Positions 2,756 through 49,096 of a DNA stretch of 64,000 nucleotides are shown here, piece after piece. Made by a program: the position numbers and the translations under genes. Position 1 is the stretch's first letter; each line of letters opens with the position of its first letter. A model generated the notes under the pieces. The model was not told the DNA's origin. It saw only the letters and a program-made list of their open reading frames with translations, and made no database searches. The DNA comes from Nitrososphaerota archaeon (GTDB lineage Archaea > Thermoproteota > Bathyarchaeia > Bathyarchaeales > Bathycorpusculaceae), in contig JAIRQQ010000086.1 of the NCBI GenBank assembly GCA_031256395.1, forward strand, positions 37,420 to 101,419. The letters are read 5' to 3'.

Positions 2756-4639
2756 ATGAAAACATCCAAATCATTCAAAAAATATTTGTCACTACTCATA
2801 GTGATCTGTATAGTTGCTTTGTTGTCTGTTACCATAGTAACAGCAGAAAGCAACATCACAAACAATTTGACGTTAAGCTCTGAGGCGAGCGTAGAAATAA
2901 ACTCTCTCGCCGCTGATAACAATAGTCCTATAGTGTATTATGTAACAAATTGGACTCAATTAAAAAATGCACTAGACTACGCTACAGCTAACCCTGGCGA
3001 AGCTGTAGATATACATATCAATGGAACTGTTTCCGCTAATGACCGATTTACTGTCCCTGCAAACGTATATCTCTACATTGACAGTGGACAAACACTCAAT
3101 GTTAACGGCGGAAAAAATGGAATCGATAACTATGGCGTAATTTTCATTTACGGTACAATTAACCACTCAAATAACGTTACAAACCATCCAGACAGCGTAG
3201 TTGTTTTTGATGGTGGAAAAATTCTAGGAAATGATAAACTTCTTGTAGGTGCTATACAAATAGATTTTCGCGGTAGCTGGGTAATAACATTTGACGCTAA
3301 TGGCGGAACAATCAACGGACAAAATAGAAACACAACTTCTGTGCTAAAGACAAACCCCTACTTAGCCCCGCCTGTTGACCCAATCAGATTTGGCTTCAAG
3401 TTTGATGGTTGGTATACAGTTACCGATGGCGTAAACAAATGGAATTTTGCTAATGCATTTACTGCTGATACAACGCTGTACGCGTATTGGATACCTCTTC
3501 ACAGTATCACATATACATATGACGAACCAGTGCCGATCAATGCACCATTCCCGCATGAAACGAGATCTAATGTAGAATCTGGTACTGCCCAAACAGTACT
3601 AAGCAACCCATTCTGTACGGGTTATACATTCAGCGGATGGACAACAACTGATGTTACAGTAGATGCTAATGGTCACTTTACAATGCCCGATACAGACGTA
3701 ACCTTTACAGGTTCATGGACGCGTGATGCTTCTCAGACTAAGGTGTTGAGTTACACGGTTGATTACTATCTTGATGGTGTCTTTGAGGAAACTCAGACTG
3801 TTAGTAAGACTGTGTGGGTCAATGATGTTGATTTAGCTGTTGATGCTCTTGATTTGGGTAGATACACCGGTTACAAGTTGGATTCTACTGTTCCTGTTGC
3901 ATGGCCGACGATGACTGTTGGTGGTAGTGCGTTTGAGGCTTATTATGTTCTAGATGTCGAACAGTTGGAATTCGTCGTAGAATTCAAAAATTGGAATGGT
4001 GATCTTCTAAAGTCTGAAACTGTTCTCTATGGCAATAATGCAACTGCTCCAGCCGATCCTACCCGAGCTGGTTATCGCTTCACTGGCTGGGATACAAGTT
4101 TCATCAATGTAACATCGAACCTCATTGTTACAGCACAATATACCCAACTAACCCAAACCAATGACTCTTCAAGTTCCTCTTCGTCTAGCAGTTCCTCTTC
4201 AAGTTACTCTTCGTCTAGCAGTTCCTCTTCTAACGTCAATGTGCCAAGCGATGATATAGAATATCGTGATACTGAAACTTCCATCATATCTGATGATGCC
4301 GACGAGTCTTTGGTTATGTGGGCGTTTGTAAATCTATTGTTGAGCATTGCGGGTGTTCTGTTGGTAATTTTGGCTGTTATTGGTGTGATGTTGCAACAAA
4401 AATCAGAGAACAGCAAAACCAAGCAAAATGTTGCAGGACAAGGTAAACAGCACAGCGCAGTGTGGCTAGTTGTGATGGTTGCTTTGAGTGTTGCAGGAAT
4501 TGTAGTGTTTCTGCTCACACAAAATATGCAGGGCAGTATGGTGATGACAGACAATTGGACAATCGTAAACGCGATTATCTTTGCAATAGAACTCATCCCC
4601 ATAGCACTCATATTCAAAAGCAAAAAAGCACCGAACTAA
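2756..4639 (+). CDS. Cell-surface protein with InlB B-repeat (Listeria-Bacteroides) domains, Ser-rich linker and 3-TM C-terminal anchor
   Basis: Signal peptide; ITFDANGG...P.RFGFKFDGWY, GYTFSGW and P.RAGYRFTGW repeats; poly-Ser; three hydrophobic C-terminal segments. Confidence 0.85.
   Translation: MKTSKSFKKYLSLLIVICIVALLSVTIVTAESNITNNLTLSSEASVEINSLAADNNSPIVYYVTNWTQLKNALDYATANPGEAVDIHINGTVSANDRFTVPANVYLYIDSGQTLNVNGGKNGIDNYGVIFIYGTINHSNNVTNHPDSVVVFDGGKILGNDKLLVGAIQIDFRGSWVITFDANGGTINGQNRNTTSVLKTNPYLAPPVDPIRFGFKFDGWYTVTDGVNKWNFANAFTADTTLYAYWIPLHSITYTYDEPVPINAPFPHETRSNVESGTAQTVLSNPFCTGYTFSGWTTTDVTVDANGHFTMPDTDVTFTGSWTRDASQTKVLSYTVDYYLDGVFEETQTVSKTVWVNDVDLAVDALDLGRYTGYKLDSTVPVAWPTMTVGGSAFEAYYVLDVEQLEFVVEFKNWNGDLLKSETVLYGNNATAPADPTRAGYRFTGWDTSFINVTSNLIVTAQYTQLTQTNDSSSSSSSSSSSSSYSSSSSSSSNVNVPSDDIEYRDTETSIISDDADESLVMWAFVNLLLSIAGVLLVILAVIGVMLQQKSENSKTKQNVAGQGKQHSAVWLVVMVALSVAGIVVFLLTQNMQGSMVMTDNWTIVNAIIFAIELIPIALIFKSKKAPN
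4165..4230 (+). repeat. 30-bp tandem duplication encoding a poly-Ser linker
   Basis: ctcttcaagttcctcttcgtctagcagttc / ctcttcaagttactcttcgtctagcagttc, then ctcttc. Confidence 0.9.
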
Positions 4640-42108: not shown

Positions 42109-43011
42109 TTGAAATTTGGCGTGTTTCTCTATCAACCTGAGCCTGTTGAAGGCGTCGACTATAACTTTTACCGTCAAAAGTCCGAATCTGGGATTGTCGG
42201 TAAAGTAAACCCACAAATGTACACAAACATCGCGGTATTCGGCGACAACAACATGGCCGCACAGCGTCCTGACTGGGTGTCTGTTAGTAGCTGTGGTCCT
42301 GCATTGCGCACAAACCCACGCTTTAATCTGCGCTGGGACGTTGTTTGCATGACTAACCCTGAAGCCCGTGAATATAACCTCAAAATCATCAAAGAATCTG
42401 CTAAACTCAGTCCCGGTATAAGCATCAGCAGCCAGCACTTTGCAGATCAAGGTTTCTGTACCTGCCCCCGATGCATTGCCGCACAAGCCAAAAGTGGTTT
42501 GAGCTGGGTTGAGTGGCGCGCAAAAACCGTCACTGACTTCCTTGCTGAAGTCAAAGAGATCGTCTCTGGCAAACCCCTCTTTGTCAACTGTTTACCTGAC
42601 CCTATGCTGGGCAAAGAACGCTTTGGTTATGACTTTGAAGCAATGGCCCAATACGCCGACTACTTTGTCATCCCAATGTTTAGCAAAGGCTACCCCACAC
42701 CTTGGTACTGGGAAACCATCGCAAGAGGCTTCAAGAGTGTCCTCAAAAAACCCGTCTTCGTTAACTTTTATGTCCGCGGACCCAACGAAACTTGGGAAAC
42801 TGTCGCACCAACAAACCAAATCATGACAGTTGCCACCCGCGTTGCCCGCCAGGGTGTAGATGGTATCATTTTCCTAGCTGAGAAAGCAGAATACATACAA
42901 AAGTTCCAAAAAGAAGCTGCCGCAGACAAAGAAACACGTGAAGCCCTAAAAGGCCACGGCGGCGACGACGTCTTGGAACTATTTGCCCGCTGGGAAAAAC
43001 TCTACAAATAA
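42109..43011 (+). CDS. Cytoplasmic GH42/GHL-like TIM-barrel protein with a Cys4 site (paralog 1)
   Basis: VCMTNP, HFADQGFCTCPRC, WR...VT.FL, ERFGYDF; no signal peptide. Confidence 0.6.
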   Translation: MKFGVFLYQPEPVEGVDYNFYRQKSESGIVGKVNPQMYTNIAVFGDNNMAAQRPDWVSVSSCGPALRTNPRFNLRWDVVCMTNPEAREYNLKIIKESAKLSPGISISSQHFADQGFCTCPRCIAAQAKSGLSWVEWRAKTVTDFLAEVKEIVSGKPLFVNCLPDPMLGKERFGYDFEAMAQYADYFVIPMFSKGYPTPWYWETIARGFKSVLKKPVFVNFYVRGPNETWETVAPTNQIMTVATRVARQGVDGIIFLAEKAEYIQKFQKEAAADKETREALKGHGGDDVLELFARWEKLYK

Positions 43012-43370: not shown

Positions 43371-45146
43371 TTGGTGAATATAATGAAAGTAAAAACAAAC
43401 CGTTTTATATCAATTGTGTTAGCGCTGTTTCTTGTTGTCGGTTGTTTTGCAGCCCTGTTGCAGACAACAAACGCAGCAGACAATAGTGTCTACACACTCA
43501 CCGCATGGGTAGATGACACTAGATCAACAAACACTATCTATCGCAACGGCGCCTCAGCCCCTGCAATATCCACTCTTATGAAACTAGTCAACGATAACGA
43601 TGGCACCGTAATCTATGCCATGTGCGTAAACCAAACAATCACAACCGACCTCAATATAAAATATCAACTAGTTGATCTAAACAACTATCCCAACCTCACC
43701 CCAACTCAAAAAACCCAAATCTTAACCCTGCTCAACTATATCTCCATCAACTACGGACTTGATACCAAAGAAGGCACAGCACTAGCACAAACCGTCATAT
43801 GGCGCATAATCCACCCCGACATCGACTACATAATTCCCCAGCAAGGCGTCGGCATCACAAAAGAAGACATTGACAACGTATATGCACACATCAACGACCT
43901 ACCCCTAAACTATAACTTCAATGTAGCCATAGAAGGCACAGCCAACAAACCAACCCACAAAGACACCAACTACAGCTACTATGGCCCCTTTAGCGTTACA
44001 TATAACCCCGACCTATCTGACATGGACCACCGATTGTCTGATATGAACTTCGACTTAACTTTCACTCCCACAAAAACCGAGTCAATTTTTACAGATAAAA
44101 CCTACACCGAAATAAACCAAGTAAAACAAGGCATGGACTTTTATGTAGGCGTACCCAACGACACAACCGAAACAACCCTAAGCTTCAACGTAGCAGCCTC
44201 AACCGGTGTCAACCTAATAACGGGCATAAACTTTCTAGTCAGTACCAGCGGCACCAACCAACCCCTAGTCGTCTACCAACCCCTCGTCCAACCCCTTGTC
44301 AACCACGAAACTACCCTCTACCACTACTCCTGCAACGCCAGCTTCACCCTAGCTCCACAAGTACTCAATGGCACACTAACCATCAACACAGAAACTGGCA
44401 CCAAAGTCAACATCAAAGACTCCATAACCGGCGGCTACACCAAAGAAGCCATACCCGATGCAAAAGGCAAATACGACCACGCCACATACAAACACAACCT
44501 CGAAACAGCCCTAGGTAGCAAAGGTAACTGGTTCCAATACAACGAGTTTACCACCGGCACCAGCCAACATTTCGATCTCGTACAAGGTGATAAACTAAAT
44601 CTAGTCGGCGGTTACACAATCACCTATAATCCCGCAACCAACGAATTTACCCTAACCCTAGACGATGCCCTCATAGCAAGCGGTGCACAACTCTCAATTT
44701 CTAACACCATCCAAGCGGCAAAAAACAAAAACGACAAAACCTATAACGTAAACAACATCTGGACCTCCGCCCCCGGCCAGCAACAATTCTCATTCAACGG
44801 TCACTCCTACACCTTTAAAGCAAACTGGGTCAACCCCTCAAAACCCGTCTATATCTACCTACACCTCGACGGCCTCACAGGCTATACAAACACCAACGGC
44901 ACAAACATCGGAGACACATACACAATCAATGTCATCGATAAAGACACCAATACTATCATAGCTTCCAAAACCCTGACAATAACCAGCGGCACAACATCTC
45001 TTCTTGGCTCAGTCACATTTGACAACCTCAAACCAAGCCAATACACAATCGAAGTAGCAGGATCCAAAGGTACCAAACTCTACACGACCGACACCGAAAT
45101 CAAACCAAACGAAACTACAACAATCAAACTCGGTAATCTACAATAA
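43371..45146 (+). CDS. Secreted thioester-domain (class II TED-like) surface protein
   Basis: Signal peptide; YAMCVNQ (C85), AQTVIW (TQxxxW-like), YYGPFSV insert, NQPLV; C-terminal SpaA/CnaB-like beta domain. Confidence 0.7.
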   Translation: MVNIMKVKTNRFISIVLALFLVVGCFAALLQTTNAADNSVYTLTAWVDDTRSTNTIYRNGASAPAISTLMKLVNDNDGTVIYAMCVNQTITTDLNIKYQLVDLNNYPNLTPTQKTQILTLLNYISINYGLDTKEGTALAQTVIWRIIHPDIDYIIPQQGVGITKEDIDNVYAHINDLPLNYNFNVAIEGTANKPTHKDTNYSYYGPFSVTYNPDLSDMDHRLSDMNFDLTFTPTKTESIFTDKTYTEINQVKQGMDFYVGVPNDTTETTLSFNVAASTGVNLITGINFLVSTSGTNQPLVVYQPLVQPLVNHETTLYHYSCNASFTLAPQVLNGTLTINTETGTKVNIKDSITGGYTKEAIPDAKGKYDHATYKHNLETALGSKGNWFQYNEFTTGTSQHFDLVQGDKLNLVGGYTITYNPATNEFTLTLDDALIASGAQLSISNTIQAAKNKNDKTYNVNNIWTSAPGQQQFSFNGHSYTFKANWVNPSKPVYIYLHLDGLTGYTNTNGTNIGDTYTINVIDKDTNTIIASKTLTITSGTTSLLGSVTFDNLKPSQYTIEVAGSKGTKLYTTDTEIKPNETTTIKLGNLQ

Positions 45147-45154
45147 TATCCATC

Positions 45155-45180
45155 GAGGACAAATCGTCCTCTTATTTTTT
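45155..45180 (+). terminator. Hairpin plus T tract after the TED gene
   Basis: gaggac-aaatc-gtcctc followed by ttatttttt. Confidence 0.55.
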
Positions 45181-45259
45181 CTGATTTAAACTATGTAACT
45201 GCTGTTTGCAGCGTTAGCAATCAGTTGCTGATAACACAAAAGAACCAATCACTTGCACA

Positions 45260-46527: not shown

Positions 46528-47430
46528 GTGAGCAAGGTATTGGCCATGCAAATAGGGCTAGTTACATACAAACCTGAGCATGTTGAAGGTTACGATCTTC
46601 ATGTTTACTATTCCAAATGGGCTGATGGACAAGCGTTTCCAGCTGCCATAGGGATGCAAAACGATGTCACCGTCTTTTGTGATGCCAAAGCCATACGCGA
46701 GGATCCCTCAATTGTCCAAACCTCCCCAAATGGTGAGGCACTAAGACGCAACCGACGCAACAATTTACCCTTTGACTACATATGCCCCACCCATCCCGGC
46801 TATCGCGCCAAAGTCTATCAATACCTCGACAGCCTCTCCCAACAAGACATATCCGGCGTAACACTCAATCTCTACCACTTTGCCGACCAAGATTTCTGCA
46901 CCTGCCCAAGATGCACCGAGCAGCACCAAAAAAGCGGCCTAGACAAAACTACCTGGCGAGCCCAAACAATAACCAACTTTTTAGCTGAAGCTAAAACCCA
47001 CACCAAGGGCACCTTTGCAGTGGAAATGTTTCCCGATCCAGTGCTAGCCAAGGAACGCTTTGGTATCGATTTTGATGCCATAGCCAAGTTGGTGGATTAC
47101 TTCCATGTTCCGCTTTCCTCACGAGACTACTTTACTAACTACTGGGTCGACACCATTGTACGAGACTTTACAGCCACCCTCAAAAAACCCGTAGTAGTTG
47201 AACTCAGCGCAGAAATGCCCACCGATGAAAAACTCGAAGCCCTCCTAAAAACAGTCGCCTACATCTCCCGCCACAACCTAACCGCAACACTGCTCTTGGT
47301 CCATGACTCTGAAAACGCACGCCAAATCGCACGCTTCGCCGTCCACAACACCAGCTTCCGAGAATGGATAGACAACTACAAATTCACAAAAATGCAAAAA
47401 ATCATAGACAACTGGGCAAAAATCTACTAA
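46528..47430 (+). CDS. Cytoplasmic GH42/GHL-like TIM-barrel protein with a Cys4 site (paralog 2)
   Basis: YICPTHP, HFADQDFCTCPRC, WRAQTITNFL, KERFGIDF; homologous to 42109..43011. Confidence 0.6.
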   Translation: MSKVLAMQIGLVTYKPEHVEGYDLHVYYSKWADGQAFPAAIGMQNDVTVFCDAKAIREDPSIVQTSPNGEALRRNRRNNLPFDYICPTHPGYRAKVYQYLDSLSQQDISGVTLNLYHFADQDFCTCPRCTEQHQKSGLDKTTWRAQTITNFLAEAKTHTKGTFAVEMFPDPVLAKERFGIDFDAIAKLVDYFHVPLSSRDYFTNYWVDTIVRDFTATLKKPVVVELSAEMPTDEKLEALLKTVAYISRHNLTATLLLVHDSENARQIARFAVHNTSFREWIDNYKFTKMQKIIDNWAKIY

Positions 47431-47791: not shown

Positions 47792-49096
47792 ATGAATAAA
47801 ATATCATAAAAACTTCTCGCTATAATTCTCCTTAGTGTTCTTATATGTTCTTTTTTTGGTTGTGCATTTATGGTCCCTGGTACATATGCGACTGAATTAA
47901 CTGCCACTCAAAAAAGCCTAAATATCTTACATGAAGTATTTGGCATCAACTTGGAAGAATATACAATCACAACCCATGAAACCAATCCCGAGTTCCCTTG
48001 GCTTGGAGATAATATTGAGGATGTATCCTGTCTTCTCATATCTGGGGAAAGAAAACTTTTCATAAACTTTTTCTTTACAAACGGCAATCTACAAAACCTG
48101 TACGTGTTTGAAAATAACGGTGTGTCTGAGTTAAAACTAGCTGCAAACAATATCGCAAGTGCCCACGCTTTCCTCGAGACATATGAGCAATACTCCTCAA
48201 AGCCTCTCTTTGGCGAATTGAGCGTCTCCCTAAACAATATAGTTGCAAACAAAAATGAAACAATACAACTCGACGATAAAATACTTGAAGTAACAGTGTA
48301 TGGTAATGACGAACTTGTGTTGCGCTGGTGCTATTCTGTATATGGTGCAACATCATACTATAACAAGGTTGTAGCGCTAAGTTTCACAAATGGCACTTTG
48401 ATGACTTTCACCAATAAATGGGATCTCTACCCCATCGGTAGCACAGAAGTTAATCTTACTAAAGAGCAGGCAATAGAGATAGCTCTGGAAGCCGTTAAAA
48501 ATAACAACTGGACCATGACACTAAACGATGACGTTTTTGATCCCGCACGATTTAATGCCCTGCGAAGTATTTCTTGGGTATCCATAGGTTTTGTCGACTC
48601 ACGAGAAGCAGATAACCCCCGACCCGGTAATGAGTTAACACTTTATCCTGTCTGGCAAATCGGCGTTGTTTTTAACGAGTTCTTTGGATATCTCTATGGC
48701 GCAGAAGTAGACATCTGGGCAGACACCCAAGAAATCAGAAGCATAAAAGAAGAACACAGCTATTTCGCCGCTTGGCTCAAAGACAACCCACCAAATCCCG
48801 ATCCCAGCCCAACTCCAAGTCCCACTTCTAGTAGTTCTGTTTCTAGTGGTTCTAGTAGTTCTGTTTCTAGTGGTTCGCGTTCTGAGAGTGGTGGTGTTAA
48901 GCCCGATGTGCTTGAGGCAGAGCCTGTTTTGGATGGTGAACTGGTTGGTGTGGAGAGTTATGATGCGGAGGATACTGACGGTGCTGGTGTCGAGGTGCCC
49001 TTAGTTGCTATAGGTTTTGCAGTTCTGACCGTAGTTATTGTTTTGGTTGTCTGTCTGTTTTTTGTTTCAAAAAGAGGTAGTGCTGTTAAAAACTGA
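47792..49096 (+). pseudogene. Secreted, TM-anchored hypothetical protein with an in-frame TAA in its signal peptide
   Basis: ATG 47792 reads MNKIS*KLLAIILLSVLICS... in frame with the 47870 ORF; paralog of 61259..62242. Confidence 0.55.
48826..48873 (+). repeat. 24-bp tandem duplication encoding a Ser/Gly linker
   Basis: ttctagtagttctgtttctagtgg x2. Confidence 0.9.

Follow-up and report, generated by a model that had tools for sequence, protein, structure and literature searches.

A divergent, predicted class II thioester domain in a protein of a termite-gut Bathyarchaeia archaeon

Thioester domains (TEDs) have been described, as late as October 2026, as adhesin domains of Gram-positive bacteria (PMC13685950; PMC6194298), and a literature search for an archaeal TED found no paper. 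In this work we analyzed a gene that is predicted to encode such a domain in a termite-gut archaeon of the Bathyarchaeia; it lies on the forward strand of a 64,000-nucleotide stretch of contig JAIRQQ010000086.1 (the window), as the confirmed open reading frame (ORF) 43371..45146, which gives 591 residues when counted from the TTG at 43371. This 591-residue version sets the numbering throughout, that is, four higher than in the likely 587-residue protein.

The TEDs are described by three motifs (PMC6194298; PMC4450167): the pattern [YFL]C-Phi-zeta, which holds the cysteine, a TQxxPhiW helper motif that is common but not universal, and a later pattern, Phi-Q-zeta-Phi-Phi, which holds the glutamine. 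It is the cysteine and this last glutamine that form the bond, and no other residue of the known domains is universally conserved; the glutamine of the helper motif was ruled out as the bond former because the later one is the partner (PMC6194298; PMC4450167). In bacterial TEDs the reaction with amines is reported to be reversible and tuned by pH (PMC13685950). Class I includes SfbI-TED (5A0L), CpTIE-TED (5A0G), PnTIE-TED (5A0N) and Cpa (PMC4450167). Exactly three class II TEDs have been solved, those of BaTIE (6FWV), EfmTIE86 (6FWY) and SaTIE (6FX6); the class carries a beta-sandwich insert, its strands P and Q run as an extended hairpin back into the head, and the cysteine and the glutamine are 195, 204 and 171 residues apart in these three proteins, respectively (PMC6194298). 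A class II TED adhesin of the plasmid pLS20 is needed for conjugation in Bacillus subtilis (PMC8092201).

Predicted fold and candidate thioester residues

We consider it highly probable that residues about 36 to 330 of the window protein adopt a TED fold. The features of this region are:

43476..43901 (+): head lobe of the TED, residues 36-177; beta strands with Cys85, then the helical subdomain (AlphaFold2, Foldseek and profile evidence)
43623..43625 (+): codon of Cys85, the candidate thioester cysteine, in AMCVN ([YFL]C-Phi-zeta motif)
43785..43802 (+): AQTVIW, A139-W144, TQxxPhiW helper motif, on predicted helix 133-147
43902..44246 (+): beta-sandwich insert, about residues 178-292, eight predicted strands (residues 185-291); a class II feature
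44247..44360 (+): hairpin tip and return strand, residues 293-330, with Q297, Q303 and Q307 (both models)
44277..44279 (+): codon of Q303; its alignment column is filled in 230 rows and is always Gln

Two AlphaFold2 models were compared with the PDB using Foldseek. The full-length model (predicted local distance difference test score, pLDDT, 84.7) gave just four hits at E<=1e-3, which were two chains each of BaTIE and EfmTIE86-TED, with best E-values of 1.9e-15 (BaTIE, 6fwv) and 8e-9 (EfmTIE86-TED, 6fwy). With a model of the TED only (residues 36-330, pLDDT 77.8) the top five hits were from 6fwy, 6fwv and 6fx6, with probabilities of 0.98-1.0, and the next hit had E=0.16. In both models all significant hits are TED structures, which points to the beta-barrel lobe and the helical lobe of this fold. 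In profile comparisons with the PDB, a profile of 20 family modules (A2) matched SaTIE-TED alone (E=0.016), aligning FC on FC and aQivIW on tQmlIW, and a profile of ten domains of the window type (A4) had EfmTIE86-TED as its best match (E=0.063), across the beta-sandwich insert. Class II TEDs are the sole significant Foldseek and PDB-profile matches of the protein and its family.

The predicted layout resembles that of class II (PMC6194298) in the head lobe with its cysteine on a beta strand, the helical subdomain with a Q...W helper motif, the beta-sandwich ahead of the strand that supplies the glutamine, and the long hairpin that returns to the head (paired strands 269-291 and 305-326 in both models). 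Class II is defined by an Ig-like beta-sandwich between helix alpha-3 and the glutamine hairpin, with a slipknot; here the predicted strands and the similarity to EfmTIE86 indicate the inserted sandwich. The spacing between C85 and Q303 is 218 residues, so that window protein and class II TEDs together cover a range of about 170-220. In contrast, the identity with class II TEDs is just 10-17%, and the window insert has about 110 residues and eight predicted strands instead of about 75 residues and seven strands. This insert, placed between the helical lobe and the glutamine strand, is found in the window domain and its nearest relatives and is missing from most family modules, which are compact (about 190 residues) and in this respect like class I. 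The window domain shares with class I TEDs the three motifs and the proposed chemistry, but it differs from them in its class II insert, and class I structures are not among its Foldseek hits.

The motifs named by the first-pass annotation were all recovered in the translated sequence, namely YAMCVNQT with C85, ALAQTVIW with Q140 and W144, and YYGPFSV at the start of the beta-rich insert, and its description of TEDs by three motifs agrees with PMC6194298. C85 stands at the end of predicted strand 80-85, and YQPLV, with Q303, directly ahead of predicted strand 305-310. The stretch NQPLVVYQPLVQPLV holds Q297 (GTNQPLVV), Q303 (VVYQPLVQ) and Q307 (PLVQPLVN). Conservation was scored in 234 modules aligned to the family hidden Markov model (HMM); these modules come from 169 proteins, which comprise the best 150 representatives, each from its own 50%-identity cluster, together with some cluster mates and the close homologues. 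C85 is kept in all 234 modules, Q140 in 228, W144 in 230 and P308 in 219, and the Q303 column contains glutamine in 230 of the 230 rows having a residue there. Ahead of the cysteine stands F (189 modules), Y (30), L (7) or M (2, of which the window protein is one), and the helper motif starts with T (130), A (73) or S (19). The family consensus reads (F/Y)C(A/G) … (T/A)Qxx(T/I/V)W … CQPQ(L/I)VP; the triad formed by the cysteine, the TQxxPhiW motif and the glutamine is the most conserved part of the family. A glutamine occupies the Q297 column in 12 of the 234 modules, all in the closest subgroup, and the Q307 column likewise in 12. Q297, the first choice of the first-pass annotation, was therefore rejected as the reactive residue, and the alignment makes Q303 the likely bond-forming glutamine.

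Several points weigh against assigning the protein to the class II TEDs. The Foldseek template-modelling scores are 0.31-0.42 with root-mean-square deviations of 10-13 A, that is, the global superposition is poor and the match is local and 3Di-based; the tip of the hairpin that contains Q297-Q303 is the least confident part of both models (pLDDT <50 in loop 295-301); the profile matches in the PDB (E of 0.016 and 0.063) are marginal; Met, not Y, F or L, precedes Cys85, and the helper motif begins with Ala instead of Thr. The search with TED and TQXA models that the first-pass annotation had proposed as a check gave no direct hit: the TED and TQXA models of Pfam and NCBIfam failed to match the window protein even at E<=10, and a phmmer search of the PDB with this protein found nothing. 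In favour of a TED, three of the 20 family modules of profile A2 matched the Pfam TED weakly. The link to the curated model PF08341 is transitive. In genome G102, which is that of a congener, a paralogue of 391 residues (L013:817-1992) matches residues 5-327 of the window protein (BLASTP, 8e-36), over the signal, the cysteine, the helper motif, the insert and the QPL repeats, and this paralogue passes PF08341 with 23.4 bits (cut-off 22); a family protein from a Clostridiales metagenome-assembled genome (MAG) (P0032, MCL1848976.1) reaches 31.1 bits. A score above these cut-offs is a matter of detection, not of structure.

Some of these points would suit a TED fold that lacks the reactive bond, in which the head would bind non-covalently or be structural and the cysteine and the glutamine would serve in packing or in another role. 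The low confidence at the hairpin tip with Q303 and the failure of the standard TED HMMs on the window protein agree with it, the bond adds little stability (PMC6194298), so that fold and bond are separable in principle, and the thioester chemistry is predicted here from sequence and model only. However, no positions are kept more strictly than Cys85 and Gln303 in the 234 modules, sampled at no more than 50% redundancy; in known TEDs these two alone are universal precisely because they form the bond (PMC6194298), and such invariance is rare for packing residues. We regard a bondless domain as unlikely.

An invariant cysteine on a beta strand beside a helix also occurs in cysteine-dependent enzymes and, with no direct HMM assignment at hand, Cys85 could be read as the nucleophile of, for instance, a transglutaminase- or papain-like hydrolase or transferase. 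The invariant set of the family consists of C, Y, G, Q, W and Q, with P nearly so, and contains no conserved His, Asp or Asn beside the cysteine, which argues against an enzyme of this type; neither peptidases nor transglutaminases are among the significant Foldseek hits. The enzyme explanation is very improbable.

The class II reading of the first-pass annotation is thus borne out by the Foldseek matches, the transitive homology and the conservation of the triad. On its predicted fold and motifs we place the window protein within the TED superfamily, as a divergent member from a new host domain, and not among the TIE proteins (thioester-isopeptide-ester surface proteins of Gram-positive bacteria). 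Class II TIE proteins differ from it in their LPXTG anchor, in their stalk of CnaB/SpaA isopeptide or ester domains (Pfam detected no CnaB isopeptide stalk in the window protein) and in the residue before the cysteine, which is Met here; its host is an archaeon, and its thioester is a predicted one. The LPXTG-type sortase signal that marks TIE proteins is carried neither by the window protein nor by its archaeal homologues.

Distribution of the family and gain of the gene

At E<=1e-3, 349 representative clusters among 1.84 billion belonged to the family, and 323 of them were found at E<=1e-10; in sequence terms the termite-gut family is discrete, and not the tail of the canonical TEDs. The genome of the window has three TED genes. 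Among 201 sampled genomes of the class, strong family matches occurred in this genome and in three of 11 sampled congeners, one other genus of the host's taxonomic family gave a weak match (E=1.3e-4), and no other genome of the 201 had any. Across the phylum the Pfam TED model scored above its cut-off in four of 401 sampled genomes; TED-like genes are rare but not unique in these archaea. Other genera or families of the phylum have ORFs with a Pfam TED (L014 in G142, L015 in G242 and L016 in G256) that are unrelated to the termite-gut family profile.

A scan of 185,579 species genomes with exact peptide patterns from the compact-module sub-alignment A5, which samples the class-I-like branch only, yielded 32 loci. 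From their isolate codes, which belong to the MAG series Lab288, Emb289, Nt197, Th196, Cus372, Ast373, Nl494 and Jx357, we take all of them to be termite-gut bins; the record titles give no habitat. In the species genomes scanned, the family was seen only in bins taken in this way as termite-gut. The loci span two archaeal and about seven bacterial phyla, with archaeal assignments to Bathycorpusculum, other Nitrososphaerota and Methanomassiliicoccaceae, and bacterial ones to Bacillota (Clostridiales, Peptococcaceae, Oscillospiraceae), Coriobacteriia, Dehalococcoidia, Synergistaceae, Planctomycetaceae and Treponema. Many of the bacterial assignments depend on the binning of MAGs, and binning errors could inflate the list of phyla, a point to be held against the breadth of the sharing.

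Modules of archaea and of bacteria do not separate in a maximum-likelihood tree but are mixed with each other; its starred branches require no fewer than three switches of the domain label, and one of the paralogues encoded in the window's genome has a module from a Bacillota bin as its sister (support 95/86). Eleven family proteins carry at the C-terminus an (M/I/L)PxTG motif, a transmembrane segment and a basic tail. Given that sortase signals are a mark of Gram-positive hosts, these 11 members support a bacterial origin independently of binning. The source of the window belongs to the genus Ca. Bathycorpusculum, given that loci of its congeners proved identical to named records of Ca. Bathycorpusculum acetigenerans, Ca. 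B. grumuli and Ca. Bathycorpusculum sp.; the termite lineages of this genus are considered autochthonous gut archaea (PMC10684969). A protein from a Treponema sp. bin (L049, WQZG01000062.1, contig of 21.8 kb) has the layout of the two-TED proteins of Bathycorpusculum, with an N-terminal long module that bears the insert, a compact module and the middle domain described below; its long module groups with the clade of the window protein, on a long branch. A spirochaete may have received the gene by transfer, or else the contig was wrongly binned.

The gene lies in a region that also contains two paralogous genes for 300-residue proteins, gene A (42109-43011) and gene B (46528-47430). In 13 congeners the site is empty: fdx, cbiZ and A share one strand, with A directly after cbiZ, and B, the divergent paralogue, is 1.4-2.6 kb away; the arrangement was inspected in L055 (G550:C5). 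The locus of the window is syntenic in Ca. Bathycorpusculum acetigenerans, and in both the TED gene is placed between an inverted A and cbiZ. Since A is inverted in both, the insertion and the inversion happened together. The orthologue of Ca. B. acetigenerans (P0003, 906 residues) has an extra SpaA-like segment and a second TED, so the domain content is in flux. A gain of the gene by lateral transfer, most likely ultimately from Gram-positive bacteria, is supported because the family is patchy in the genus, the site is empty in these 13 congeners and bacterial members have sortase signals. The proposal of the first-pass annotation that the gene came from bacteria is supported on the same grounds, and by the presence of family members in Bacillota and Actinomycetota bins.

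Alternatively, a mis-binned or chimeric contig could have brought a bacterial gene into an archaeal bin, as might be suspected of a family common to many bacterial MAGs in which the nearest neighbour, in the tree, of a paralogue's module comes from a Bacillota bin. However, the same window encodes an archaeal-type non-discriminating aspartyl-tRNA synthetase and a Hel308-like helicase, the G+C around the gene does not differ from that elsewhere in the window, the genes on either side share 76-93% identity with those of congeners, and the order A, TED gene, cbiZ, B is also found in independent assemblies of another Bathycorpusculum species. We give an assembly artefact hardly any weight.

Gene start, downstream domains and the anchoring of the protein

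Outside the TED, the following features were assigned:

43383..45146 (+): probable true coding sequence, 587 residues plus stop, starting at ATG 43383
43373..43377 (+): Shine-Dalgarno-like GGTGA, 5 nt ahead of ATG 43383, read from the sequence
43383..43475 (+): signal peptide or signal anchor, residues 5-35; MKVKTNR, FISIVLALFLVVGCFAALL, then QTTNA with the putative cleavage site before AD; includes the conserved VVGCFAA
44361..44900 (+): beta-rich middle domain of about 180 residues (331-510), uncatalogued; alignment A3, pLDDT mostly >85
44916..45143 (+): prealbumin-like or carboxypeptidase-regulatory-like beta-sandwich, residues 516-591; weak Pfam match, local Foldseek match
45155..45181 (+): terminator-like hairpin GAGGACAAATCGTCCTC (the hairpin itself 45155-45171) and then the T-run TTATTTTTTC; consensus scan only

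The probable start, as judged from the sequence, is ATG 43383 and not TTG 43371, because GGTGA overlaps the TTG; homologues have N-termini of the form MK.K, and the database protein P0002, 99% identical to the window protein, has 587 residues. The frame given by the first-pass annotation exists, and it is the start that has to be moved, in view of the spacing of GGTGA and the length of P0002. Three other features that it had listed were found again: a signal-peptide-like N-terminus (MKVKTNR, a hydrophobic stretch and the TNA/AD site), the lack of a C-terminal transmembrane segment or sortase signal, and a terminator-like hairpin with a T-run downstream of the stop codon in the consensus scan.

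Between MKVKTNR and QTTNA, FISIVLALFLVVGCFAALL forms a hydrophobic stretch of 19 residues, and AlphaFold2 places a helix at residues 10-23 with low pLDDT. On inspection, the C-terminus (…IKLGNLQ) had no hydrophobic segment, LPXTG or archaeosortase-type tail. The protein has no cell anchor of a known type, and this counts against a role as a cell-bound adhesin. Eight N-glycosylation sequons were counted in the protein against 11.2 +/- 2.9 in shuffles, which is no enrichment. The protein may be cleaved at TNA/AD and released, it may remain attached through an uncleaved 19-residue signal anchor, or it may carry a lipid on the (G/S)C of VVGCFAA; the middle domain may be a further attachment module.

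The signal core (window 43440-43460), L(V/I)(V/I)(G/S)CFAA, is near-identical in all three TED genes of the genome (the others being L001:34-2814 and L003:3-1739), and it may be a lipobox or merely a co-inherited leader. Across the family, [GAS]C occurs in the hydrophobic region of 44 of 126 signal-like N-termini. Lipoprotein anchoring through VVGC is kept as a weak idea: the sequence fits a lipobox, but the cysteine lies within the hydrophobic core and is followed by FAALL, Thr takes its place in one congener's paralogue, and a lipobox-like pattern is present in just 11 of the 185 signal-like N-termini of the genome, several of them spurious. On these sequence features a lipid at VVGC would be a rather unlikely anchor. 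A type IV pilin-like signal was rejected given that most homologues lack the (K/R)(G/A/S) cleavage motif ahead of the hydrophobic stretch.

If the protein were released after cleavage at TNA/AD, it would be a genuine thioester protein acting as a free factor that tags or cross-links matrix, food particles or partner surfaces. The lack of a C-terminal transmembrane, sortase or archaeosortase signal is consistent with release, and so are the AxA-like cleavage site that follows the hydrophobic region, which is better conserved than the cysteine there, and the replacement of this cysteine in the congener's paralogue. Nevertheless, the hydrophobic stretch is long enough for a membrane anchor, (G/S)CFAA fits a lipobox and is kept in all three paralogues, and the middle domain, found only in members without a sortase signal, suits an alternative attachment module. 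Release as a free factor is, in our judgment, quite unlikely.

The middle domain contains the motifs SITGGY, KGKYDH, NWFQYN, FDLVQGDKL, SISN, IWTSAPGQQQF and YLHLDGL and had no significant match in Pfam or the PDB; a lipocalin-like identity was discarded, the similarity being insignificant (E about 0.05-0.1). Of 170 family proteins, 51 carry it, in many cases right at their C-terminus, but the 11 members that have a sortase signal all lack it, an absence expected by chance at roughly 2% for a base rate of 30%. We consider it a candidate for a new domain that serves in attachment or as a stalk. There is also a shorter variant, which ends in ...IYLYIHCDTIQFYQ. For the C-terminal domain, a weak Pfam match to CarboxypepD_reg at 526-586 (E=0.34) and a local Foldseek match to 4v4c_B (75 columns, root-mean-square deviation 3.0) were obtained, and homologues carry SpaA (PF17802). 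In several family members, i.e. L003:3-1739 (-) of the same genome, P0005-P0007, P0011 and P0050, the TED is followed by tandem repeats of eight residues, such as QDFYDVYA, QRDVWDIV and FERDVQQx, that may form a repetitive stalk.

The neighbours of the gene encode a B12-radical-SAM enzyme, CbiZ, a ferredoxin, a GT4 and the two paralogous 300-residue proteins; no sortase, pilus or conjugation genes are among them. Two other genes of the window encode surface proteins. The product of 47870-49096 (+) has 408 residues without a Pfam match, a Pro/Ser/Thr-rich linker, a C-terminal transmembrane helix and a basic tail, so conventional C-terminal surface anchoring exists in this genome. The product of 2756-4639 (+), of 627 residues, begins with a signal peptide and contains repeats of the Listeria-Bacteroides type (TIGR02543) and a long stretch of Ser; at its end, a two-helix membrane module matches NCBIfam NF052597, 'FILTED domain-containing surface protein', with 92.5 bits (cut-off 40). 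This archaeal window thus holds a further surface protein of bacterial appearance, one with its own C-terminal anchor.

Proposed mechanism and significance

The explanation that we favour, with moderate confidence when taken in full, is that of a laterally gained class II harpoon. The window gene would encode a secreted surface protein of a termite-gut Bathyarchaeia archaeon in which residues about 36-330 form a divergent class II TED. Folding would bring Cys85, which sits on a head-lobe beta strand, up to Gln303 in the tip of the long hairpin that comes back from the inserted beta-sandwich; both residues would condense autocatalytically into a Cys-Gln thioester with loss of NH3, and Gln140 and Trp144 of the AQTVIW helix would pack against it. 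The thioester would then be attacked by a primary amine of the target, as a rule that of a Lys side chain, and an isopeptide bond would join the protein to the target. The beta domain of about 180 residues and the prealbumin-like domain that follow the head would act as a stalk, as an attachment module or as both. The gene would derive from a TED family that circulates among termite-gut bacteria, including sortase-bearing Gram-positives, and archaea, and it would have been inserted beside cbiZ together with the inversion of the neighbouring gene. By analogy with the bacterial domains we infer thioester formation, amine reactivity, an adhesive role, a target and retention at the cell; in view of the habitat restriction, the target could be one peculiar to the termite gut, such as host cuticle, ingested particles or partner cells.

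The pLS20 adhesin uses a class II TED for contact between microbial cells and not with host tissue (PMC8092201), and attachment to partner cells in the gut community could plausibly follow this model. In contrast to the window gene, which stands alone between housekeeping genes, that adhesin is plasmid-borne and linked to conjugation. A bolder version, in which a working Cys-Gln harpoon exists in Archaea, the family, restricted to termite guts, moves freely between domains and, where sortase is lacking, LPXTG has been swapped for the attachment module of about 180 residues, is put forward only tentatively and seems to us doubtful.

With a conserved TED family on solid archaeal contigs, covalent attachment of the self-activating kind would reach into a second domain of life. 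If the bolder version is true, archaea would share in covalent adhesion chemistry, and a common, habitat-specific target would be indicated, such as the hindgut cuticle, food particles or partner cells. TEDs are also raw material for protein-ligation tools. The spread of the family over about nine phyla of one habitat is a clear case of habitat-driven gene sharing across domains, and the family would offer a concrete handle on how Bathyarchaeia and Methanomassiliicoccales that are uncultured stay in place despite the flow of the gut, or attach to syntrophic partners.

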